From: a virus
Lineage: Duplodnaviria > Heunggongvirae > Uroviricota > Caudoviricetes
Reading direction: 5' to 3' (one strand)
Length of the DNA stretch: 38,874 nucleotides
Virus record (IMG/VR): IMGVR_UViG_643692022_000007
Part shown: positions 1 through 28,698 of the stretch, in pieces
How the letters are laid out: each line of letters opens with the position of its first letter
Position numbering within the stretch: the stretch's first letter is position 1
Program-made: the position numbers and the translations under genes
The notes under the pieces: generated by a model
The model's input: only the letters and a program-made list of their open reading frames with translations
Databases searched by the model: none
What the model was told of the DNA's origin: nothing

Positions 1-1950
1 ATGAAATCTGTGAAATATAGACCTGATATTGACGGTTTGCGCACATTGGCCGTGCTGATGGTTATCTTGTACCATATTGGTGTACAAAAAATAAGCGGCG
101 GTTTTATAGGTGTTGATGTTTTTTTTGTTATTTCTGGATATCTCATCACTGGAATCATATATCCTAAATTACAAGACGGGACCTTTAGCTATGAAGACTT
201 TTATCTGCGAAGGATAAAAAGAATTTACCCAACTCTACTATTAGTAGTTGCAGTGACATTCATTGCATCATATTTCTTCATGATGCAAACAGATTTTAAA
301 GAATTCATAAATAGTGCTCTTGCATCGTTGCTTTCATTAAGCAATTTCTTTTTCATGTTGAACACTGGTGGTTACTTTGACCAGTCTACAGACAATCTCC
401 CGCTTTTACACACATGGTCATTATCTGTTGAAGAACAGTTTTACATTCTTTGGCCGATAATATTAACCATAGCATTTAAATTTAAGAAGGGAACAGTTAT
501 ATTCATAGTTTCCCTTTTGTTATCCATTGGGTATTCTCAATATCTAACATTCACTAACCCTTCATTTTCTTACTACATGATACCATCTAGAGCTTTCGAG
601 TTGTTAATTGGTGGTATGTGCTCAATTTATCTAAAAAATACATCCCCTACAATCAAGATCAGATCTTTACTTGCATCGTTAGGTGCAACAATTATTATTG
701 CCTCATCATTAATACTGTCAAAGAATTCAAACTTCCCTGGATTGAATGCGCTACCAGTATGTCTTGGAACTGCAATGATAATAATTGCTGGTAATGGCAA
801 TATTTATCCATCAGTTAACAAAATCCTAAGTCTTAAGCCGATTGTTTACATAGGAAAAATATCCTATGCTGCTTACTTATGGCATTGGCCATTAATTGCT
901 TTTTATAATTATAGAGGCATTCCTTTAACACCGTTAAATCAATTAATCATTATCATTATCACACTATTTTTATCAAGCGTAACATTTCATTTCATCGAAA
1001 ATAAGACCAGATATCTGAATTTTTCATTTCAAAAAACAGTCCTGCTATTTTTCGTTTTACCTGTCATTGCGTTTATAGGAATCACCATTACTTCATATAA
1101 AACAGATGGGTTCGCTTACCGATTCAAAGGTTACATCGATGAACTGAGTGATGAAAATGATCCTAGTAAAATAAGAAGCAATTGCCATACAAACTATTAT
1201 AAAAACAATTGGGATATCAAAAGAATAATCCCAGAGTGTAATATTGGTGACACATCAAGACCTGTTGATGGATATCTATGGGGAGATTCATTTGGAAATG
1301 CAAGCGCAGGGTTCTTTGACTCTTATGGGAAGGCTAACGGGCTTAACTTTCAAGAAAGAACAATAAGCTGGACCCCACCTATACCCGCAACCTCCTTTGG
1401 TCTCCCTAACTTTAAAAATGAATATAAAACCAGCACAGCAAACTTTACTTCTTGGATATTCAATGAATCTCTAAGATATAAGTACGTTGTATTATCTGCA
1501 GACTGGAGGCAATATGACAAATGTTCTCGTGATGAAATCACTGGTATACCTCATGAATGTGCTCTGTTTGATTCTAATGGTAACAACATCACCAGAGACT
1601 ATAGAAATAGAGTTGAATCCATGATTAAAGAATACATCAATCACGGCGTGAATGTAATAATCTTTAACTCTGTTAATGGCATTGATTTTAATAAAATAAA
1701 ATCAGGGAAAATAAGTGGAAAAGACATTTCCACAAAAGAATACATGAAAAAAGAGGTTGTAGGGAGTGATGAATTTATTCATTATCTTGTTAAAAAATAC
1801 CCACAAATTACTTATATTGATCCTAATAATATTCTCTGCAAAAATGGTTTATGCACAGGTCAGATTAATGGCAAAATAATTTATAGAGACGGTGGCCATT
1901 TAAACTGGTCTGGTTCAAAGGAACTTGGAAAACTTTACGTTAAAGAGTAA
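1..1950 (+). CDS. Membrane O-acyltransferase (acyltransferase-3 family with C-terminal SGNH-like extension); likely O-antigen acetyltransferase, lysogenic-conversion moron
   Basis: 649-aa ORF starting at base 1. N-terminus MKSVKYRPDIDGLRTLAVLMVILYHIG plus many hydrophobic helices, typical of OafA/Oac-type enzymes. Very AT-rich; lies distal to and convergent with the tailspike gene. Confidence 0.75.
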   Translation: MKSVKYRPDIDGLRTLAVLMVILYHIGVQKISGGFIGVDVFFVISGYLITGIIYPKLQDGTFSYEDFYLRRIKRIYPTLLLVVAVTFIASYFFMMQTDFKEFINSALASLLSLSNFFFMLNTGGYFDQSTDNLPLLHTWSLSVEEQFYILWPIILTIAFKFKKGTVIFIVSLLLSIGYSQYLTFTNPSFSYYMIPSRAFELLIGGMCSIYLKNTSPTIKIRSLLASLGATIIIASSLILSKNSNFPGLNALPVCLGTAMIIIAGNGNIYPSVNKILSLKPIVYIGKISYAAYLWHWPLIAFYNYRGIPLTPLNQLIIIIITLFLSSVTFHFIENKTRYLNFSFQKTVLLFFVLPVIAFIGITITSYKTDGFAYRFKGYIDELSDENDPSKIRSNCHTNYYKNNWDIKRIIPECNIGDTSRPVDGYLWGDSFGNASAGFFDSYGKANGLNFQERTISWTPPIPATSFGLPNFKNEYKTSTANFTSWIFNESLRYKYVVLSADWRQYDKCSRDEITGIPHECALFDSNGNNITRDYRNRVESMIKEYINHGVNVIIFNSVNGIDFNKIKSGKISGKDISTKEYMKKEVVGSDEFIHYLVKKYPQITYIDPNNILCKNGLCTGQINGKIIYRDGGHLNWSGSKELGKLYVKE

Positions 1951-1957
1951 TCATAGA

Positions 1958-1982
1958 AAAGGCGCCGTTAAACGGCGCCTTA
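1958..1982. terminator. Bidirectional rho-independent terminator between the convergent acyltransferase and tailspike genes
   Basis: Perfect hairpin AGGCGCCGTT-taa-ACGGCGCCT flanked by AAAA on one side and TTATTT on the other, between stops at 1950 and 1989. Confidence 0.8.
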
Positions 1983-1988
1983 TTTATA

Positions 1989-4427
1989 TCAAACATTAAG
2001 AGTTTGAATTATATCAGTATTACCTTTATTGTCGACTGGATAGTTACATGATAAAGTTGAATTTATAGTCAAGTTTTCACCAAACCAAAATTTATTTGAT
2101 GTCGATACTGATGAGGACCCAACCCCATCAATTTTTAAACACAACAGAGCATTTATGAAATTATTCCTAACACATCTAATTGTCTTATAGTGAGACAACC
2201 ACGATTGTTCCCCATCGTCTCTAAATAATGTAGCAACACTCTGAGAGATAAATGATTGTGAGGTAATTGTGTTGCAAGTTAACTCCATAATACTATTGGG
2301 TGAACCAAGTGATATACCTGATGGTAAACTAGCAATAACATTACCACCCCTTAGTATATTTCTATTTACTCGAAGTATCTTTGGAGTATAACCGCTTGCG
2401 CTTAAATCAAGAAAAAATGATGAGACAGTACCTAACTGATTACCTGATATTTCTATAACGCAATCAGAAGAACATTTAACATTGAATCTATTATATGTAC
2501 CAGTGAAATTGTTATTTGTTAATGATACTTTTTGATACCCACCTCCAGAGTTACTCCACATAGCTCCAAAAAATGGCGTAGATGGCAAAGATGATGACCA
2601 TCTAAAGTCATTTCCATCAATAAATAGCTCCTTACTATAACTACCAAAACTTAAAGAGCAATTTCTTATTTCATTATCATGAATGAATACACGCTCAAAA
2701 TTACTAACATGTAAGTTGGCGGTTCCTGATGTTAGTAACCTACCCATAATATTATTAGTAAGACGCAGGACTGAATTTGAAATTTCATCTTGATCTACGC
2801 CAATTATCATTCCAGTGCTTGTGATATTAATAATATTGTTATCTATCTTCCAGTCTGAGTTTGTAATATGCGTATACAAAGTTAAAAATGACGGCGCGGA
2901 AAAATAATTGTCCGATATGGATACATTATAAGAATTCATAATGTAATCATTATTTCCAGATATTCCTAAAAGAAGGATTCTATCCTTTGAACGGACGGTA
3001 TTACCTGTAATTTCTATACTATGAGCCCATCCTGTGTCAAACCACTCAGTCCCCCTGTTGGTGTATACCATCATCCAATAGCCACTAGTTGTAGCAGTAT
3101 TTCCAGATACTGTTATTTGCCCCCATGACTGTATAGCATATTCAGATCCAACCATACCATGCCCCGTATCGAATGCCATGCATCCATCAATACAATCAAA
3201 CGTATTGCCGGTAACATCATATCTGTTAAACCCAAATCGACCTTTAACTGCACCATTTCCACGAGTATTTATTCTATTTCTGAAAGTATTGCCGGTTACT
3301 GTAATATCACCAATTAATATACCATTTCCTTGATTGGCAAATGCTTGACCAGCACAGTACACAGCATGGTCATACCATCCAAGAAATGAGTTTCCAGAAA
3401 CACGCAAATTCCGCGCATTCCCTGCTATACAACTGCCAGGAGCATCTTTAAAAACCATATCAAAAACGACCAGTCCTGACGTTTTTTTGTCATGGTTATA
3501 ATATGTCTCACCAGCAACTGGAATATTACCATCAGGACCATGTATATAAGGAGACGTACCACCTGGTTCGATATCACCATAATAAGTTTGGTCTGGAATT
3601 CCTGTAGTGCTGCTGGTTCCCGATGCCGCAACTTCAATTGAACGTGCATTACCATCAATTTGTAACCCATGCACCGACTGAGCACCTACAGCACCACTCA
3701 GGAATCGGAATAATTTACGGGTATCTCTTGCCGGATCAATCTCGGTCGTAGAACCTTCAACAAAGTATGTGCGATACCGGCGAGTAATAGTTGCTGAACC
3801 ATCGCCCCATACTGAACGAACATATGACCATACATTAACAGCCGAATCAAAACAGTATATTCCAGTTGGGAAGTATACGGAGCATTTAAGATTATGCGCC
3901 TCATCCATGACCATCTGAACTTTAGGCTGATGGTTTATTGAAAGGTCACCAGATGCCAAAGCAGCCAGCTCTGCTTCGTTCATATATTTTGTAGCCAGAA
4001 TACTTGGTGTCTTCTCTACATATTCATCAAGTGTTCCATATCGGGTGTTTACAAGAGAACCATTGCCATTAGCTAATTCAAGGCGCAACTGGTCAGGATC
4101 GTATTTCAGTACATTAGGATAATAGAACTGCTGTGCCCCGTACGCATCATAAACAGCCATAGAATGGCCTTGCACAGTTACGAACTTGGCAATCTGTCCG
4201 TTATATACCGGATATCCAGCGGCGTTAATGATGATTGGTTGCGATACAGGAACGTGAGAACCGTCTTCGTTTTCCACATAAACCTGAATCTGGTTTTCAG
4301 GATTTACAGGGTCAGTGTCAATTTTACCGATATAAATTTTGCCATTGGCAACCGCTTTAAAAGAACGCGCCATAGTGAAAAGTTGCGAAGGCATCGATAC
4401 GATCACATTGGCTGTAATGTCTGTCAT
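1989..4427 (-). CDS. gp9: Tailspike protein: P22-type N-terminal head-binding domain fused to a divergent beta-helix receptor-binding domain
   Basis: 812 aa. The first ~110 residues ([58 protein letters not shown]...) closely match the remembered P22 tailspike N-terminus. The rest has repeated xTGNTx motifs typical of a right-handed beta-helix. The 3' two-thirds of the gene is AT-rich. Confidence 0.9.
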
Positions 4428-11199: not shown

Positions 11200-11677
11200 T
11201 TATTCGCTCCCGTCATCGCAATGTTCCTTCCGGTGGAAGTAATTCCAACCGTTCCACTTCGCCAACTGGTTACCACTACCAACAGGCATACGGTTTGGAT
11301 AACCGGACTTACATTTAGCGGCTTTTGCTCTGTCCATTGCAGACAGTTTGACGAGTCTCTCTTTCCCGTATCTGGCAGTGGTTATAAGTTTTGCAGACGC
11401 TTCCAGCGCATAATCCGGAGCAATGCGGCAGGCAAGGTTGAAAATGACGGCATTGATAGCGTTATTTGATAAACCGTGTTCATCGCCAGGATCTGGAGCG
11501 ACATCTGCATCAGCGAAAATGTAGCCAACGTTGATACCTGGTGACGCATCACCGCCAAGCCACTCAGCCATCATCATTTCAAGGTCGTTGACGCCATCTT
11601 CCATGGACTGCGGTTCGACATCGGTTAACGTGGCATTTGATGCCACACCGAGCTTACGTAATGCCGCAAGAACTAAA

Positions 11678-11700
<23 letters not shown>
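11200..11700 (-). CDS. gp4: Tail adaptor protein, P22 gp4-like (start taken at an internal ATG downstream of the repeat)
   Basis: From [33 protein letters not shown]... the product is 166 aa, matching remembered P22 gp4 in sequence and length. The longer track ORF (to 11811) adds an (SQ)n leader that is probably another frame of the repeat, not part of gp4. Confidence 0.8.
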
Positions 11701-11950
<250 letters not shown>

Positions 11951-11962
11951 GCTTGTCTCCAG

Positions 11963-11988
11963 ATAAAAAAGGGAGCCGAAGCTCCCTC
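11963..11988 (-). terminator. Rho-independent terminator or attenuator just downstream of the coat gene
   Basis: Minus-strand hairpin GGGAGC-TTCG-GCTCCC followed by TTTTTT, between the coat stop (11995) and the next start (11950). Confidence 0.7.
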
Positions 11989-18793: not shown

Positions 18794-19145
18794 TGTTGGC
18801 TCCGTTTATCCGTTAAAAGGGATATCAGTTAAGTTATCCCGTGTAGGGTATAAGCCATTGTCGAGACCATTCATTGAATGGCCTCTGCAATAACCGATGT
18901 CTTTCCATCAGTCCGCCACCACAAAGAATCTTTTTTGCCATAAGGCAGGAGGTTCATCTTTCAGTGGCTGCCAGTGTTATTTCCCCACTTACTGGCTTGG
19001 GTTGTGTCGCTGTACTTCCGTAACTGGTGGTGCACAGATTTAGTTAAATCTGTTCTCGCCTGAACTATCTTTTACATACCCGGATTGTGGGGATGTAAAT
19101 CACGGTTTCATTATCAAGCCCACCCGTAGATGGGCTTTGGAATGG

Positions 19146-19664
19146 TCACTTTGGCAGTCCGGGGATCGATATTTGCGCCTGCTGCTCAAGCCTTTCGATT
19201 CTTGCTATGAGTTGCGGTTTTTTGATCCTGCCCCAGCGGTTCAGCAAGCGTCCTGACATACTGGCAACATCCTTTTCCTTCATGAACTCCAGCATTAACT
19301 CGTTGTGCTCTCTTTGGTATGAGTGAGCCATCTCCATCAGCCTGTCACGCATCCAATTAAATGCTTTGATAAACGCCTCTTTGATGGCGGCAGCTTTTTT
19401 GCCGGTAAACGACATGATGATGTACATCGCACCGTCTTTGGAAATTTCATATTCAACATACTGATTACCCTTGTGTTCATAGGTAACCCGCGAAAAGTTG
19501 CTGGTTAGAAATTCATCCGAACAGTCTAGCTTTTCGATTTTCTGAATGATGTGGTGATGCTGCTTGTCGAAGTAAGCTGCTACCTTGCGGGAGGTTGTGA
19601 TCACGCGATCACCAGAAACAACCACCATGTCCCGGAAATCGAGATTAGCCAATTGATGATTCAT
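19146..19664 (-). CDS. rha: Rha-family phage regulatory protein
   Basis: From the internal ATG the product MNHQLANLDFRDMVVVSGDRVITTSRKVAAYFDKQHHHIIQKIEKL... is about 172 aa and looks like Rha. The longer track ORF (to 19907) is probably upstream read-through. Confidence 0.65.
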   Translation of the reverse strand: MNHQLANLDFRDMVVVSGDRVITTSRKVAAYFDKQHHHIIQKIEKLDCSDEFLTSNFSRVTYEHKGNQYVEYEISKDGAMYIIMSFTGKKAAAIKEAFIKAFNWMRDRLMEMAHSYQREHNELMLEFMKEKDVASMSGRLLNRWGRIKKPQLIARIERLEQQAQISIPGLPK

Positions 19665-19804
19665 AGCGTCTTTACCTTTTAGAAAGTGAGCCTGTCTCAC
19701 AGAAAAGCCGCCCGAGAGAGGTCGCCACCTATAACGGCATTTCTCAGGCTCGCTTACTGAAAGGCTCTCGTTAATATGCGCGTGAGATGCGCTGTGAAAT
19801 TCAG

Positions 19805-19832
19805 ATATAAAAAAGCCCCGCGAATGCGAGGC
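19805..19832 (-). terminator. Rho-independent terminator downstream of the lysis cassette
   Basis: Minus-strand hairpin GCCTCGC-attc-GCGGGGC (one mismatch) followed by TTTTTTATATCTG. Confidence 0.6.
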
Positions 19833-20006
19833 TAAATCCTGGTGTTTGTGATGACTGGCTCTTATCTCAACGCAGCCCCTTACCGCGCGCCATATGCTTA
19901 ACTTCAAGCATCAGCAATGAGATGTTTAATCTGGATTCACTCCAGAAGTGATCACCACCCTGTCTACAGAGCCAGATGTGAAGGATGATGAGTAAAATTA
20001 TCGCTA

Positions 20007-20474
20007 TCATCGAAGGCATTGCGTCCTGATGTATTCCTGAAGCGTTCTCAGTGCTGTTTGGTCGCGGATAATTCCGTCCCGGACACCGAGAACGTTTCGT
20101 CCAGCAACTGGAGAGAGTTCGACGGTGGCATCATTGCCCATGCCGGAGGTGCGGGAGGTTTCGGTTGAGGCTGGCACTTGACACTTTCCTTTGACGAGCA
20201 CCCTGCCACCATTATCAAGCTTGCGCCGAAGAGCATCATTTTCAGCTTTCGCATCAGCTAACTCCTTCGTGTATTTAGCATCGAGTGCATCAGCAGAACG
20301 CTGGCGCTGCTGCATGTCAGCGATGGTGGCGGTCGCCTGCTTCAGCTCACTGACTTTTTTATCACGCTGTTCTTTATAGGTAATGGCGTTATCACGGTAA
20401 TGATTAACCGCCCATGACAGACAGACGATGATGCAGATAACCAGAGCGGAGATAATCGCGGTTACTCTGCTCAT
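20007..20474 (-). CDS. Rz: Rz i-spanin
   Basis: [34 protein letters not shown]... matches remembered lambda Rz; N-terminal TM helix plus coiled coil; ATGA overlap with the endolysin stop. Confidence 0.85.
20048..20254 (-). CDS. Rz1: Rz1 o-spanin lipoprotein, embedded in the +1 frame of Rz
   Basis: [21 protein letters not shown]... has a signal peptide and lipobox (VAGC) followed by a Pro-rich segment ([11 protein letters not shown]), like lambda Rz1. Confidence 0.75.
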
Positions 20475-20974
20475 TGTTGCCCCCACAAACAGACTTCACG
20501 CTCAATCTCACGGCGAGTCATCAGCCCTTTCCATTGCTTACCGCCAGCGTATGTCCAGCGCCGTAGCTGATCACATGCGCCTTTGATATCACCCTGGTTT
20601 ATTTTGCGAAGAAGCGTCGATGTTCTGAAATTGCCAGCACCCACGTTGTAGACGAACGAGTAAAGAGCGCCGCGCGTTGTTTCCGGTATATCGACTTTGA
20701 TGTACGGGTTAATTTGTCTGGCGACCGTGGCAAGGTCTTTATTCAGGAGGGCTTTGCATTCTGCTTCGGTATACGTTTTACCGAGCATGATGTCTTTTCC
20801 GGTGTGTCCGTGACATACAGTCCATACACCAACAATATCTTTGTATGGTATGTAGCTAACACCTTCCAAACCATCGTTACCACTTGGTCCAGTGATTAAC
20901 ACAGATGCTATAGCAATAGCCCCGCCACTTATCGCCGCTATTACGCTATTTCGTAGTGCCGGTGACATTGCCAT
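20471..20974 (-). CDS. R: SAR-type endolysin (phage 21 R-like lysozyme)
   Basis: 167 aa; Gly/Ala-rich weakly hydrophobic N-terminus ([19 protein letters not shown]), then a lysozyme domain matching remembered phage 21 R. Confidence 0.85.
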
Positions 20975-21149
20975 TCAATCTGTCCTCGCGCTCTTTGCGC
21001 TTGTAGTACCAGTTGATGCCAAATGTGCCGACAGTACAAAGAATACCAATGATGACAGCCCAGTCATTCAGGGAGAGAATGCCACCCATCGCAGTCAGTC
21101 CTCCGAAGCTGTAACTGAACCATTCTCTGATTTTGTCCATACGGTACAT
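20946..21149 (-). CDS. S: Class II holin (pinholin-like) with dual-start motif
   Basis: 67 aa with two predicted TM helices and a charged C-terminus (KRKEREDR); N-terminal MYRMDKI has two Met separated by a basic residue; lies directly upstream of the SAR endolysin. Confidence 0.7.
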
Positions 21150-21155
21150 GCTCTA

Positions 21156-21171
21156 CCCCTTCATTGAGGGG
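21156..21171 (-). promoter_or_regulatory. Stem-loop just upstream of the holin start, analogous to the lambda sdi structure
   Basis: Minus-strand CCCCTCAATGAAGGGG hairpin a few nt before the holin ATG, where lambda has CCCCTTATTGGGGG. Confidence 0.5.
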
Positions 21172-21547
21172 ATTTGCTCTATTTAATTAGGAATAAGGTC
21201 GATTACTGATAGAACAAATCCAGGCTACTGTGTTTAGTAATCAGATTTGTTCGTGACCGATATGCACGGGCAAAACGGCAGGAGGTTGTTAGCGCAACCT
21301 CTTGCCACCCGCTTTCACGAAGGTCATGTGTAGAAGGCCGCAGCGTAACTATCACTGATGAATTCAGGATAGCCAGTGGCTACGGCTCAGTTTGGGTTGT
21401 GCTGTTGCTGGGCGGCGATGACGCCTGTACGCATTTGTTGATCCGGTTCTGCTTCCGGTATTCGCTTAATTCAGCACAACGGAAAGAGCACTCGGTGCAT
21501 TTAAGCCAAGCCCCATAAGGGAGAATGCTCTTACCTGTTGTGCAGAT

Positions 21548-21742
21548 ATAAAAAATCCCGAAACCGTTATGCAGGCTCTAACTATTACCTGCGAACTGTT
21601 TCGGGATTGCATTTTGCAGACCTCTCTGCCTGCGATGGTTGGAGTTCCAGACGATACGTCGAAGTGACCAACTAGGCGGAATCGGTAGTAAGCGCCGCCT
21701 CTTTTCATCTCACTACCACAACGAGCGAATTAACCCATCGTT
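21548..21742 (-). ncRNA. 6S-type short pR' transcript ending at tR'
   Basis: Region matches remembered lambda pR'-tR' sequence; terminator hairpin AATCCCGAAAC(A/C)GTT...AACGGTTTCGGGATT plus T-run at about 21549-21607. Confidence 0.7.
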
Positions 21743-21780
21743 GAGTCAAATTTACCCAATTTTATTCAATAAGTCAATAT
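21743..21780 (-). promoter_or_regulatory. Late promoter pR' with overlapping qut site
   Basis: Minus-strand TTGACTTATTGAATAAAATTGGGTAAATTTGACTCAACG, matching remembered lambda pR' (-35 TTGACT, -10 TAAATT), directly downstream of Q. Confidence 0.75.
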
Positions 21781-21819
21781 CATGCCGTTAATATGTTGCC
21801 ATCCGTGGCAATCATGCTG

Positions 21820-22443
21820 CTAACGTGTGACCGCGTTCAAAATGTTGTCTGCGATTGACTCTTCCTTGTGGCATTGCACCACCAGAGCGTCATACAGCGG
21901 CTTAACAGTGCGTGACCAGGTGGGTTGGGTAAGGTTTGGGATTAGCATCGTCACAGCGCGATATGCTGCGCTTGCTGGCATCCTTGAATAGCCGACGCCT
22001 TTGCATCTTCCGCACTCTTTCTCGACAACTCTCCCCCACTGCTCTGTTTTTGCTATATCAACCGCGCGGCCTGTACCGTGGCAATCTCTGCATCTTGCGC
22101 CCGGCGTGGCGGCACTACGGCAATAATCCGCATAAGCGAATGTTGCGAGCACTTGCAGTACCTTTGCCTTAGTATTTCCTTCAAGCTTTGCCACACCACG
22201 GTATTTCCCCGATACCTTGTGTGCAAATTGCATCAGATAGTTGATAGCCTTTTGTTTGTCGTTCTGGCTGAGTTCGTGCTTACCGCAGAATGCAGTCATA
22301 CCGAATCCGGCTTGTGATTGCGCCATCCCCATAGCAGCCATCACATCAGTACCGGAAAGAGAGTCAGAAGCCGTGGCCCGTGGTGAGTCGCTCATCATCG
22401 GGCTTTTTGGCGAATGAAATTTAGCTACGCTTTCGAGTCTCAT
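21820..22443 (-). CDS. Q: Late-gene antiterminator Q (lambda-type)
   Basis: 207 aa, essentially identical to remembered lambda Q ([49 protein letters not shown]...). Confidence 0.95.
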
Positions 22444-26377: not shown

Positions 26378-27754
26378 TCATACGTCAGCCCCTTGTGCAT
26401 ATCGTCTGCCACGTGCACCGGGTGCATTTGATGTTGTGCAAATCTGTCTGGCTTCATCCTGGTCACATGCAACAAAGTGTCCGTTGCAGAACTGCTGGTA
26501 AACCGTACCAAGCGAGCCAAAACGGTTTTTCGTCACGATGATTTCAGCAAATGGCGCGGCGCTACTGTTCTCGTCATATACAGCTTCCCGATAGAGCATG
26601 ATGATTGAGTCTGCGTCCTGTTCAATGCTTCCTGAATCACGCAAATCTGCGTTTGTCGGGCGTTTGTTTGGTCGCTTCTCAACATCGCGCGAAAGCTGAC
26701 TTAGGGAGATAACAGGCGTTTTCAGGTCTTTCGCCATCGCCTTCAGGCTTCCGGAGATGTGAGCAATTGCGAGGTCGTTGCGATCTGCTTTCGGCTTCTC
26801 AATCAGGCCAAGATAATCCGCCATGATGAGTGACAGGTTTGGATTTTCCTGTTTATGCCGTTCTGCGATTGAGCGTATTTCTTCGACCGATAACCGCGAG
26901 GCATCGACTACCCATACATCCAAATCCGCAAGCTGACTCATGCCGTTAGCAACACGTGCCCAGCCCTCGTCATCCATCGATGCAGGATTTCGCAGTACGC
27001 TAACCGACATCCTCCCGGCGTTGGCAATGCTTCGTTCTGCAATCTGCAATGCGCTCATTTCCATCGAGAAAATCAACACTCCTCGCCGGACGTCAGAACC
27101 AGGAATAACGCGGCTTGCAACGCCTTCGGCAATCTTCAGCGCCAGCTCGGTTTTACCCATACCAGGACGAGCAGCGATTATCACCAGGTCTTCCGCGTTC
27201 ATCCCTCCGGTGATGGCATCAAGTTCTTCGATTCCGGTCTTCAGGGTATCGGACTCTTCTCCGTTCCTCAGACGCCTGTCAAGCGTGTCAGTGTAGTCAG
27301 TGATGATTTCACCCAACCGTACAGGTTTAACCTCGTCACGGGGCTTTCTGATGGCTGAGAGACGCTTTACAAGTTCATCCATCGCCTGACTCGATGCGTC
27401 GATGGTTCCGCTCTGAATTGGTTCACGCATTTCATCCATGATTTCCAGCACCAGACGGCGGTGATAGTTATCCGCGACCATTCCGGCATATCCCTTCAGG
27501 TTTGCGGCACTCGGGCAGTTTTTGCTGGTCATCAGGATTGACGTGAAATGCTCCTCTCCGCACGCCTCGGCAACCATCAGCGCGTCGATTAGGTTTCTGT
27601 TTCGCGCCTGCTTGCGGATAACCTCGAAGGCTTTCCGGTAGAGCGGAATTGAAAACGCTTCCGGCTCAAGCGTTGCCAGAACGTCACTGGCAGTTGGTGT
27701 TAATCCACCAATCAGCAGGCCACCGATAACGCTCGCTTCGATATCCTGTTTCAT
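26378..27754 (-). CDS. Replicative DNA helicase, DnaB family (P22 gene 12-like)
   Basis: 458 aa with a Walker A motif ([12 protein letters not shown]) and DnaB-like architecture; directly downstream of the O-like gene. Confidence 0.9.
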
Positions 27755-28698
27755 GCAATCCCCCTGTCTGCAAACTTCCCTTCACGAACTCCCGTTAACG
27801 AATCTTCTCTCAGCAGGTAATCAAAATCGGCCGTCCAGCCAGTGTCGTTGTCTCCGAAGTAAAACGGCTTGGCCTGATGTACAAACGCCCTGACATACGC
27901 TCTGAAACCGTCCACGTTTGGCGTTTTCAGTTGCGGGATGATTTTCTTCAGGCGGCGTTTGCGTTTCTCGTTGACCGCAACAGCGTGTGGCAGTCTGTCA
28001 CCGACTTCGGTGTTGTAGGCGTTCAGGAAGGATTCGTAGTCGATTCGTTCTGCCTTGCGACGTTCAGGTTTAACCTTCCCATCACCTCCCCCATTGGGGG
28101 GTAGGGGGGTATTATTTATATTCTTGTTAATACCTTCTTGTTCATGATGTGCGGTTGTTTGTGCGGCTTCATGTGCGCTTTCATGTGCGGCATGTACTCT
28201 GAAAGCCGCGCCATTGCTGGCTTCGTCATGTGCGTCATCATGTGCGGTTGTTTGTGCGGCTTCATGTGCGGGTGAATTGTTCATTTTTTGAGCGTATTCA
28301 TGGTAATTTGTGACGGTGATCACACGACCTTTTTGCTTCTCTCCATCAATGGAGATCATCCCCTCTTTCACAAAAACCTGAAGCATCCGCTCAACCTGAT
28401 CACGGCTTGCCGGCTTGCCATGCCTGTCGCATAACTGAAGACCTAAATCAGCTGCTGTCACAACCAGTTGACCGGGTTGCAGATGCCATTCATGACCTTT
28501 GAAATTCGCTTTGTATGGCTTTCTGGCGGCATTCAGGAGAAGGTTTTCCCACAGGGTGCGAAGATAAACATCTTTCGCCCATGACTGTTTCAGAATGCTC
28601 CGGTACAACGGAATGTAACCAGTTTTCTGGTTCTCCATCCTGTTGCTCCTGCGCTCGTGTGCGGCGCTGAAATCGTAGATTTTTGCTGTATTGCTCAT
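27751..28698 (-). CDS. Replication initiation protein (lambda O / P22 gene 18 analogue) containing the origin iterons
   Basis: 315 aa; N-terminus [10 protein letters not shown] resembles lambda O (MTNTAKILNF); internal repeated peptide [10 protein letters not shown] arises from DNA iterons within the gene. Confidence 0.8.
28140..28280. repeat. ori: Candidate replication origin: array of direct repeats (iterons) with adjacent G-run/AT-rich segment
   Basis: Roughly 36-bp unit catgatgtgcggttgtttgtgcggcttcatgtgcg present twice (about 28141 and 28239); six or more copies of tcatgtgcg-like core; followed at about 28083-28140 by gggggg runs and AT-rich sequence. Confidence 0.65.

Follow-up and report, generated by a model that had tools for sequence, protein, structure and literature searches.

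Introduction

Lambdoid phages exchange modules at short conserved boundary sequences. In phage lambda, the 6S RNA exists as a real transcript; it is bound by Hfq, and under Q it is read through (bioRxiv 10.1101/2024.10.31.621285). P22-like phages commonly have terminators inside their operons, for which partial termination and the stopping of non-antiterminated transcripts have been suggested as roles (PMC8022706). We analyzed two terminators of this kind in a phage window, by which we mean the whole stretch of 38,874 nucleotides.

The Shared 13-mer

The string TTTTTTATATCTG occurred in exactly two copies in the window, copy A (19802-19814) and copy B (21543-21555), which lie 1741 bp apart on the minus strand. 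No further copy was found in the window when one mismatch was tolerated. Both copies begin at the final base of, or immediately 3' of, a strong hairpin, and the stems of these hairpins are unlike each other. The preliminary description had reported an identical 13-nt minus-strand tail behind tR' and behind the terminator after Rz, with different stems, and the exact positions and hairpin folds bear this out. It had also raised the case of a match confined to the generic T-run; the match goes 7 nt past the T-run and then stops. In a 100-nt alignment of the two sites, identity was limited to CGGG and the 13-mer, with stems and flanks at chance level. Searches with blastn-short and nhmmer, to E=100, detected no further similarity between the flanks, with only chance 7-mers.

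The tR' Site

The following features surround copy B:
21820-22443, minus strand: Q antiterminator gene of the lambda type, 207-aa ORF (Pfam PF03589 Antiterm, E 2.7e-57)
21749-21777, minus strand: late promoter pR', TTGACT-17 nt-TAAATT (promoter scan; lambda homology)
21556-21606, minus strand: tR' hairpin at the 3' end of the 6S RNA, with CCCGAAAC...GTTTCGGG as its interrupted stem (fold −24.9 kcal/mol, z −5.8; lambda homology)
21543-21555, minus strand: copy B of TTTTTTATATCTG, consisting of the U-tract (21550-21555) and ATATCTG (21543-21549), the latter making up the opening 7 nt of the tR'-distal module
21475-21542, minus strand: tR'-distal module, a long-range helix around a variable insert, with 5' arm CACAACAGGTAAGAGCA (21526-21542) and 3' arm TGCTCTTTCCGTTGTG (21475-21490)

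A 401-nt region, hairpin and tail included, was 94.1% identical to lambda 44529-44937 (J02459, NC_001416), and in related records this region carries annotations for a promoter, a qut site, and a terminator. pR' lies directly after the lambda-type Q gene, and the coordinates place tR' about 190 nt farther downstream. By this homology, the copy B hairpin is a lambda-type tR', the predicted terminator of a 6S RNA after Q and pR'.

The tR'-distal fold over 147 nt gave −59.7 kcal/mol (z −7.1). Both arms of this helix are kept between phages, and the enclosed insert differs. The 5'-arm variants CAC, UGC, and UGU each pair with the invariant GUG, through G.U pairs. Covariation of the predicted helix stays at the level of suggestion, because the 3' arm is invariant and the variation is confined to the 5' arm.

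The Lysis Cassette and the Post-Rz Terminator

The lysis cassette (20007-21149) sits between the two copies of TTTTTTATATCTG, and copy A lies behind it. The features are:
20946-21149, minus strand: holin (ORF; lysis-cassette Pfam set PF16080, PF00959, PF03245, PF06085)
20471-20974, minus strand: endolysin, a lysozyme (ORF; same Pfam set)
20007-20474, minus strand: Rz (ORF; same Pfam set)
20048-20254, minus strand: Rz1 (ORF; same Pfam set)
19867-20019, minus strand: 50-aa hydrophobic ORF in the interval from Rz to the terminator (no Pfam family)
19814-19833, minus strand: post-Rz terminator hairpin AGCCTCGC-ATTC-GCGGGGCT, 8 pairs of which 6 are G-C, 4-nt loop (terminator scan; −14.1 kcal/mol, z −5.2)
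19802-19814, minus strand: copy A of TTTTTTATATCTG, consisting of the U-tract (19809-19814) and ATATCTG (19802-19808), the latter forming the leader module's 5' edge

Phage epsilon34 has an annotated conserved hypothetical protein, gp67, in the position that corresponds to the 50-aa ORF. Its homologous hairpin site is annotated as 'Rho-independent terminator'. In the window, T6 follows the stem directly, on the strand that also encodes Rz and rha. The post-Rz site is a predicted Rho-independent terminator that closes the lysis cassette. A promoter overlapping the copy A tail, which could drive rha independently, was detected neither by the promoter scan nor as a conserved −10 by eye.

The Leader RNA Upstream of rha

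Downstream of copy A, comparative folding gave a conserved structured leader:
19665-19792, minus strand: conserved structured leader (comparative folding)
19778-19792, minus strand: mini-hairpin GCGC-N7-GCGC of the leader
19735-19764 (5' strands) and 19675-19710 (3' strands), minus strand: long hairpin of the leader, in which CCUUU is matched to AAAGG, the ribosome-binding site, by a helix of 19757-19764 with 19675-19682
19713-19718, minus strand: loop segment CUCUCG, complementary to the 5' flank CGAGAG (19765-19770)
19146-19664, minus strand: rha-family regulator gene, 172 aa (Pfam PF09669 Phage_pRha, E 1e-23; PF10549)

The proposed pairing held in 84.2% of cells, compared with 74.5% in shuffled and 30-52% in slid controls. 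Twenty-one pairs had changed on both sides against 11.7 expected (0/500 shuffles), and RNAalifold scored 10 of 19 leader pairs as compensatory. Such changes were present in every leader helix. The loop-to-flank pairing may form a pseudoknot or an alternative conformation; each of its helices taken singly was not significant against shuffles, and the support is comparative and comes from 7 or more sequence versions found in the same place.

At the gathering threshold, no Rfam 15 family matched anywhere in the window, the leader included; a search of 19100-21900 at E<=10 gave only implausible matches (E 0.87-9.6). Leader copies precede Rha, KilA-N, GIY-YIG, or HNH genes, and about 20% of E. coli genomes carry them. 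The leader is a predicted covarying RNA outside the Rfam families, and its fold would sequester the ribosome-binding site. Rha is linked with IHF, which prompted us to look for an IHF site (WATCARNNNNTTR) in TATCTGAATTTCA. By eye, 7 of the 9 specified positions agreed; natural variants destroy the WATC core, and the candidate was rejected.

Mosaic Joints in Related Phages

BLAST homology stopped at the T-run, at query positions 241-244 for the Rz site and 253 for tR'. Tails were counted among the IMG/VR matches listed, a redundant set of mostly enterobacterial prophages. The Rz hairpin was followed by T-run plus ATATCTG in 44/125, and the other tails included ATTGCCATTACA, ATTGCAACAAAG, ACATCTG, GCAATAA, and more. 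The tR' hairpin was followed by ATATCTG in 91/119 and by ATTTGGG, the start of a tRNA-like module, in 23/119. The comparison spanned hundreds of related phages. A search for the same tail in them, as proposed earlier, found it in many, and the hairpins also occurred with unrelated tails.

Downstream modules also stood behind other hairpins. At locus L197, another hairpin stands ahead of ACATCTG and the leader. Locus L231 combines a Q and a late promoter of the phage-21 type with a hairpin of its own, and then comes T6ATATCTGCACAACAGG..., the whole tR'-distal module. T-arm-like GGTTCGATTCC strings prompted a tRNA search there; ARAGORN found no tRNA in the L231 tR'-distal insert or in the whole window. 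In locus L211, a transposed HNH-plus-leader module has TTTATATCCG at its 5' end, ahead of a leader copy and without any terminator. Among 74 loci without a lambda-type tR', tails such as ATTTCCATTAC, CCATTTTTTGAG, and GCGTTTTAAGC were observed, with L231 as the exception.

The heptamer is near-invariant after tR'; after Rz it follows RYRYCYG, with chiefly transitions. The natural variants ATGTCCG and GTATAGG alter most positions, and in leader variants L019 and L069 the heptamer is wholly absent. As judged from these genomes, the heptamer moves with the downstream module and not with the hairpin. The T-run is a mosaic recombination joint at both sites, where hairpins and tails recombine freely.

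Exchange between the two sites was examined separately. The hybrid joint of the tR' hairpin with the leader continuation had 0 matches in IMG/VR, and the predicted deletion joint was present in 0/5426 E. coli genomes. The sole match to the reverse pattern was L231, which is a different late terminator. Identical tails occurred in 12/56 genomes with both sites, among the matches listed, and tail combinations assorted freely.

These results separate two suggestions of the preliminary description, a short duplicated segment from recombination and a conserved downstream element. The recombination idea holds for the T-run as a mosaic junction at both sites and is not supported for duplication between them: similarity ended with CGGG and the 13-mer, the tails were uncoupled, and neither hybrid nor deletion joints were found. 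Conservation of each heptamer as the start of its own module stands. The heptamer is not an element common to both terminators, because the same hairpins bear other tails and other late terminators lack it.

Probability of a Common Heptamer

A naive test gave 0.08 expected copies of TTTTTTATATCTG and two copies in 0/100 shuffles; this copy-number test is post hoc, and fairer tests were weak. The window has 33 exact direct repeats of at least 13 nt, compared with 11.6 ± 3.6 simulated, and ATATCTG occurs 10 times in it. A first estimate used single-linkage clustering of terminator hairpins, which collapsed to 16 clusters and was replaced. Independence was then defined by clustering on nt 8-30 of the downstream modules. 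This gave 124 independent post-terminator modules in related phages, and in 19/7626 of their pairs (0.25%) the first 7 nt were identical. With 8 terminators, equal to 28 pairs, this rate gives a chance of about 7% per window for at least one common 7-nt tail. Matches of 6-7 nt were common between unrelated modules, for example tR2 ATTTGGGGGAG and ATTTGGGTCAG. The sequence just 3' of terminators was strongly biased, being A/T-rich and mostly starting with AT.

As counterpoints to coincidence, we recorded that the 7% chance is not negligible, that a T-rich string with ATATCCG stands in a third context (L211), and that one variant at the Rz site, ATATCTGCAACAAAC, stays similar to ATATCTGTGCAACAGG, the tR' form, over a few additional bases. 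The conservation of the heptamer in each family, L211, and the longer-resembling variant leave room for a very old common origin or for a weak constraint on both sites, for instance to keep an AU-rich linker single-stranded ahead of a helix.

Interpretation of the Common Tail

We consider it likely that the two sites are known intrinsic terminators and that their common tail is the generic T6 plus a heptamer that most likely coincides at two recombination joints. Both would be ordinary Rho-independent terminators of a mosaic P22-like E. coli phage, within its Q-dependent late operon. tR' would end the short pR' transcript (6S RNA), and the other terminator would close the lysis cassette. Polymerase without Q modification would stop at the U-tract. 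By analogy with lambda biology, Q-modified polymerase would be expected to pass the terminators and go on to transcribe the lysis genes, rha, and the virion genes. T6 would be the functional U-tract that any such terminator requires, and ATATCTG would be the first 7 nt of two different modules, the tR'-distal helix and the rha-type leader. The T-run would serve as the joint at which lambdoid phages swap upstream and downstream modules, and this genome would by chance combine two modules with the same starting heptamer. The A/T-rich, AT-starting bias after terminators would help such a coincidence.

An old recombination relic is an unlikely explanation. The modules, or their first bases, would then come from one sequence joined through T-run microhomology, with T6ATATCTG alone still recognizable. 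The mosaic joints at both sites and the hairpin switching of L197 and L231 are compatible with this origin, as are the occurrence of TTTATATCCG at the 5' end of the transposed module and the slightly longer likeness of one variant (ATATCTGCAACA against ATATCTG(TG)CAACA). However, the alignment, blastn-short, and nhmmer to E=100 gave nothing past the 13-mer, IMG/VR had no hybrid joints, the tails assorted independently among the matches listed, and sharing of 6-7 nt is common between unrelated modules.

A further reading takes ATATCTG as the conserved 5' edge of portable structured-RNA modules of the late transcript, the leader at the Rz site and the long-range helix at tR', instead of as terminator sequence, and makes U6-AUAUCUG a common module-joining or RNA-processing site; as a whole it is rather improbable. 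We regard as very improbable a functional element selected at both sites, in which U6-AUAUCUG would tune termination or Q read-through as AT-rich downstream DNA, or would serve, as an AU-rich single-stranded stretch linking the terminator hairpin to the following helix, as an RNase E-type processing site of the read-through late transcript. Terminator-distal sequence can alter the efficiency of intrinsic termination in vitro, each copy is flanked by a terminator hairpin on one side and a conserved downstream helix on the other, and the heptamer is conserved inside each family, all of which would suit such an element. It is opposed by the unrelated tails that the same hairpins carry in nature, by leader variants L019 and L069 and other late terminators without the heptamer, by the variants ATGTCCG and GTATAGG that differ at most positions, and by the absence of co-variation of the two tails within genomes among the matches listed.

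A coding constraint was rejected as almost certainly wrong: both copies do read Gly-Phe-Phe-Ile-Ser in open frames (...TVSGFFISAQQ... and ...HSRGFFISEFH..., from an orf-64-like ORF that spans tR' and from a long frame, initiated at TTG, that runs over the Rz terminator), but the T-run varies as T5/T6/T7 among Rz-site homologues, which breaks the frame, and the frame crosses a terminator hairpin and the structured leader, with downstream sequence replaced wholesale in relatives.

On the preferred reading, coincidence at two joints of ordinary terminators, one of them the textbook tR' of lambda, the 13-mer match itself matters little. It illustrates the joining of lambdoid modules at the T-runs of terminators and warns against reading too much into short common tails. 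The neighboring leader at rha is more interesting than the tail match. If it controls translation, it would help to explain how potentially toxic rha-type accessory genes are restrained in a late operon.

Comparison with Known Systems

The tR' site is closest to that of lambda, with the same Q family, pR' hexamers, interrupted hairpin, and T6ATATCTGCACAACAGGTAAGAGCATT continuation as at copy B. Compared with lambda, the insert inside the tR'-distal helix differs, and the downstream lysis genes are not lambda S and R. The post-Rz/gp67 terminator of epsilon34 is homologous in position to copy A, with about 90% identity over the region. The next gene in epsilon34 encodes a hypothetical protein (GIY-YIG-family in the RefSeq copy), whereas here the rha leader follows, starting with ATATCTG. 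The copy A site, with a canonical GC hairpin and T6, belongs with the terminators within the late operons of P22-like phages, including those discussed for phage L.

The leader resembles leaders that sequester the ribosome-binding site, with CCUUU-AAAGG pairing and compensatory changes; unlike described cis-regulatory RNAs, it has no Rfam 15 family. In contrast to exchange at boundary sequences in lambdoid phages, the hybrid and deletion joints that were sought gave no sign of 13-mer-mediated exchange between the two sites. As at lambdoid mosaic junctions, homology with relatives breaks at or within the T-run at both sites.

Two terminators with the same tail

In the window (38,874 nt), the 13-mer TTTTTTATATCTG was present in exactly two copies, at 19802–19814 (copy A) and 21543–21555 (copy B), both on the minus strand with a spacing of 1741 bp. 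No further copy was found in the whole window with one mismatch permitted. Both copies started where a strong hairpin ended, and each site showed a canonical hairpin and T6 in the right orientation and position. The preliminary description of one 13-nt minus-strand tail behind two differing stems was borne out, as the copies are exact and an 8-pair hairpin after Rz stands against the long interrupted stem of tR'. The features, in reading order, are the following.

Minus strand, first in reading order: lambda-type Q gene (PF03589)
Minus strand, after Q: promoter pR' (TTGACT, 17 nt, TAAATT)
Minus strand, from pR' to the tR' hairpin and copy B: transcribed segment of about 190 nt
21556–21606, minus strand: tR' hairpin, long interrupted stem CCCGAAAC...GTTTCGGG (−24.9 kcal/mol, z −5.8)
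Minus strand, after copy B: holin (PF16080)
Minus strand, after the holin: lysozyme (PF00959)
Minus strand, after the lysozyme: Rz (PF03245)
Minus strand, embedded in Rz: Rz1 (PF06085)
19867–20019, minus strand: 50-aa hydrophobic ORF, overlapping the end of Rz and stopping 33 nt before the terminator hairpin
19814–19833, minus strand: Rz-site hairpin AGCCTCGC-ATTC-GCGGGGCT, 8 pairs (−14.1 kcal/mol, z −5.2)
19665–19792, minus strand: conserved structured leader of about 130 nt, after the second hairpin and copy A, between the Rz-site terminator and the rha-type start codon
Minus strand, after the leader: rha-family gene (PF09669)

The window represents a mosaic, P22-like phage of E. coli and was matched best by phage APC_JM3.2, with 58% of the first 25 kb covered at 96.7% identity. 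No Pfam family was found for the 50-aa ORF; the epsilon34 ORF corresponding to it, by position alone, is a conserved hypothetical protein (gp67).

Module exchange at the T-run

Of the 13 nt, T6 forms the terminator's U-tract; the other 7 nt, ATATCTG, open two different modules that lie downstream. Sequence comparison indicates that the T-run is a mosaic joint at terminator sites, because the hairpins carry varied tails and the heptamer stays with the downstream module. Megablast matches to other phages often ended exactly at the tail (query 241–244 at the Rz site, 253 or 277 at tR'). IMG/VR contigs with either hairpin and a T-run were gathered regardless of continuation, and counts are among the matches listed (119 stretches each). 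The Rz hairpin continued into the T-run and ATATCTG in only 44/125 of these matches; other continuations among them were ATTGCCATTACA, ATTGCAACAAAG, ACATCTG, GCATCTG, GTATCTG, ATGCGC, and others, and inclusion of variant hairpins gave further tails such as ATGTCCG, GCAATAA, and GTATAGG. Among the matches listed for tR', the hairpin was followed by ATATCTG in 91/119 and in 23/119 by ATTTGGG, with which a tRNA-like module begins.

The heptamer travelled with the downstream sequence, not with the hairpin, in several of the loci fetched for comparison. L197 showed a different hairpin (AGCCAG-ATTAATC-GCTGGCT), then T5-GACATCTGAAATTCACC and the leader as in the window. In L231, whose Q and late promoter are of the phage-21 type, the locus's own hairpin was followed by T6-ATATCTGCACAACAGGCAAGAGCAC...GTGCTCTTACCGTTGTG, a clean case of modules exchanged at a terminator T-run. 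At 1880–2040 (minus strand) this locus has a 21-type Q-like protein, a QBE-like TTTGAGCAATTGAGCAAT repeat, and the different late terminator hairpin, behind which lies the lambda-type module distal to tR', T6ATATCTG included. Ten loci, among them L211, had a diverged leader copy and an HNH-endonuclease gene inserted among the opening bases of the pR' transcript; TTTATATCCG preceded the leader copy with no terminator ahead.

The HNH module (L211:1606–2288, about 680 bp including a diverged leader copy of its own) was likewise inserted precisely in L161, L162, L165, L182, L193, L198, L209, L215, and L228. Its insertion points in the lambda-type pR' transcript are GACTCAA/GAATGGCAG and GGGATA/GATGGGTTAATTCG. 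The insertion changes AACGAT to AAGAAT and thereby retains a −10-like sequence, at the position of the lambda promoter-proximal pause element.

Copy B is followed by the helix CACAACAGGUAAGAGCA/UGCUCUUUCCGUUGUG (z −7.1 over 147 nt), and the insert it surrounds is variable. This long-range helix (CACAACAGGTAAGAGCA/TGCTCTTTCCGTTGTG; window 21475–21542 and L231:1780–1880, both minus strand) directly follows tR', and its insert differs among phages. The 5'-arm variants CAC, UGC, and UGU still pair with an invariant GUG via G·U pairs, and TGCTCTTT in the 3' arm presumably resembles the boxA core. Strings like a tRNA T-arm (GGTTCGATTCC) were seen in some inserts, in which ARAGORN called no tRNA.

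Coincidence, common origin, or common function

A naive shuffle test gave 0/100, which overstates the significance of the match. The window held 33 exact direct repeats of at least 13 nt compared with 11.6 ± 3.6 in simulations, or 25 without the tandem array and the 31-nt repeat. ATATCTG itself occurred 10 times, and 5/7 simple terminator tails in the window started with AT. The post-terminator sequences of some 250 related loci, clustered on nt 8–30, fell into 124 independent modules; 19/7626 pairs of these (0.25%) agreed in their first 7 nt, about 40-fold over uniform expectation, an example being tR2 ATTTGGGGGAG and the alternative tR' tail ATTTGGGTCAG. The window's 8 terminators form 28 pairs, for which the chance of one or more such matches is about 7%. 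The shared tail is a generic U-tract plus a heptamer, and the identity of the heptamer probably reflects coincidence of two independently assorting module starts.

Sequences right after lambdoid terminator T-runs were strongly biased in the related loci, most beginning with AT and often with ATTG or ATTT. The tandem array (TCTGGC × 9.7, perfect, 11748–11805) is located at the 5' end of a minus-strand ORF of 203 aa (11200–11811), a short way downstream of a further intra-operon terminator, whose T-run starts at 11970 and whose tail is ATCTGGAGACAA. Within a 315-aa minus-strand ORF (27751–28698), the stretch 28147–28271 has the direct repeat of 31 nt (at 28147 and 28240) together with TGTGCGGCTTCA-like tandem repeats of 12 nt; these look like origin iterons in a replication-initiator gene, as in lambda O.

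An old common origin of the tail is a minor and rather improbable alternative. The two sites do share CGGG and the 13-mer, and in the 100-nt alignment identity was confined to these. Blastn-short with 150 nt upstream and 150 nt downstream gave chance 7-mers only, and even at E = 100 the leader HMM had no match in the tR'-distal region. Among IMG/VR contigs, none showed a leader-type continuation behind the tR' hairpin; the reverse pattern gave one match, L231, and this locus is no hybrid between the sites. The predicted deletion joint was found in 0/5426 complete E. coli genomes. The duplicated segment from recombination that had been proposed finds no support in these results.

A shared function of the tail at both sites is very unlikely. 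When the same tail was sought in related phages, ATATCTG did recur after each hairpin, but the hairpins also carried other tails. Tails assorted freely in the 56 loci that had both sites and were identical in only 12 of them; tR'-ATATCTG co-occurred at the Rz site with ACATCTG, GCAATAA, ATGTCCG, GTATAGG, and others. The 74 loci without a lambda-type tR' had late terminators with unrelated tails, and the L019 and L069 leaders lacked the heptamer (T-run, then A, then the GCGC hairpin). The earlier suggestion of a conserved downstream element common to both sites did not hold.

Leader RNA upstream of rha

The leader occurred once in the window and in 115/230 sources (229 fetched loci and the window), for example at L018:2656–2794, L146:9017–9158, and L089:5168–5283. 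It was present in 1088/5426 complete E. coli genomes (about 20%), with no RNA feature annotated there in RefSeq, and had no Rfam match. The downstream genes differ by phage (Rha, KilA-N-like, GIY-YIG, HNH, unknown ORFs). The leader comprises a mini-hairpin (GCGC-N7-GCGC), a long imperfect hairpin with CCUUU at its base predicted to pair with the AAAGG ribosome-binding site of rha, and a stretch of the apical loop that is complementary to the 5' flank. RNAalifold gave 19 pairs, 10 with compensatory changes. The full structure had 84.2% of cells paired, compared with 74.5% when shuffled and 30–52% with partners slid, and 21 pairs were altered on both sides against 11.7 expected (0/500 shuffles). 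The loop-flank helix showed at least seven sequence versions at one position: CGAGAG/CUCUCG, CACAGAA/UUCUGUG, CCCGAG/CUCGGG, CCCAGAG/CUCUGGG, CACCGA/UCGGUG, CCAAGAGC/GCUCUUGG, and GAAAGU/ACUUUC, a single version being too short for significance by itself. As the hairpin is long, this pairing may be an alternative conformation rather than a true pseudoknot.

Relation to known terminators

The shared tail itself is of low interest; the neighboring rha-type leader RNA merits separate follow-up. The heptamer requires no function of its own and would contribute at most an A/T-rich unpaired spacer from the terminator hairpin to the next helix. By analogy with lambda and P22, polymerase from pR' unmodified by Q would terminate at tR', stray transcripts would stop after Rz, and Q-modified polymerase would read through both terminators. 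The lambda 6S RNA ending at tR' is a real Hfq-bound transcript, found even in lysogens and read through under Q (bioRxiv 10.1101/2024.10.31.621285). The roles suggested for P22-like intra-late-operon terminators are partial termination or halting of transcripts without antitermination (PMC8022706). The pR'–tR' region showed 94% identity to lambda 44529–44937, with promoter, qut site, and terminator annotated in related records, and the homologous hairpin at the Rz site is annotated in phage epsilon34 as a Rho-independent terminator. Both elements are therefore real and of already known kinds: one is the lambda tR' of textbooks, the other a terminator within the late operon, of the P22-like type.
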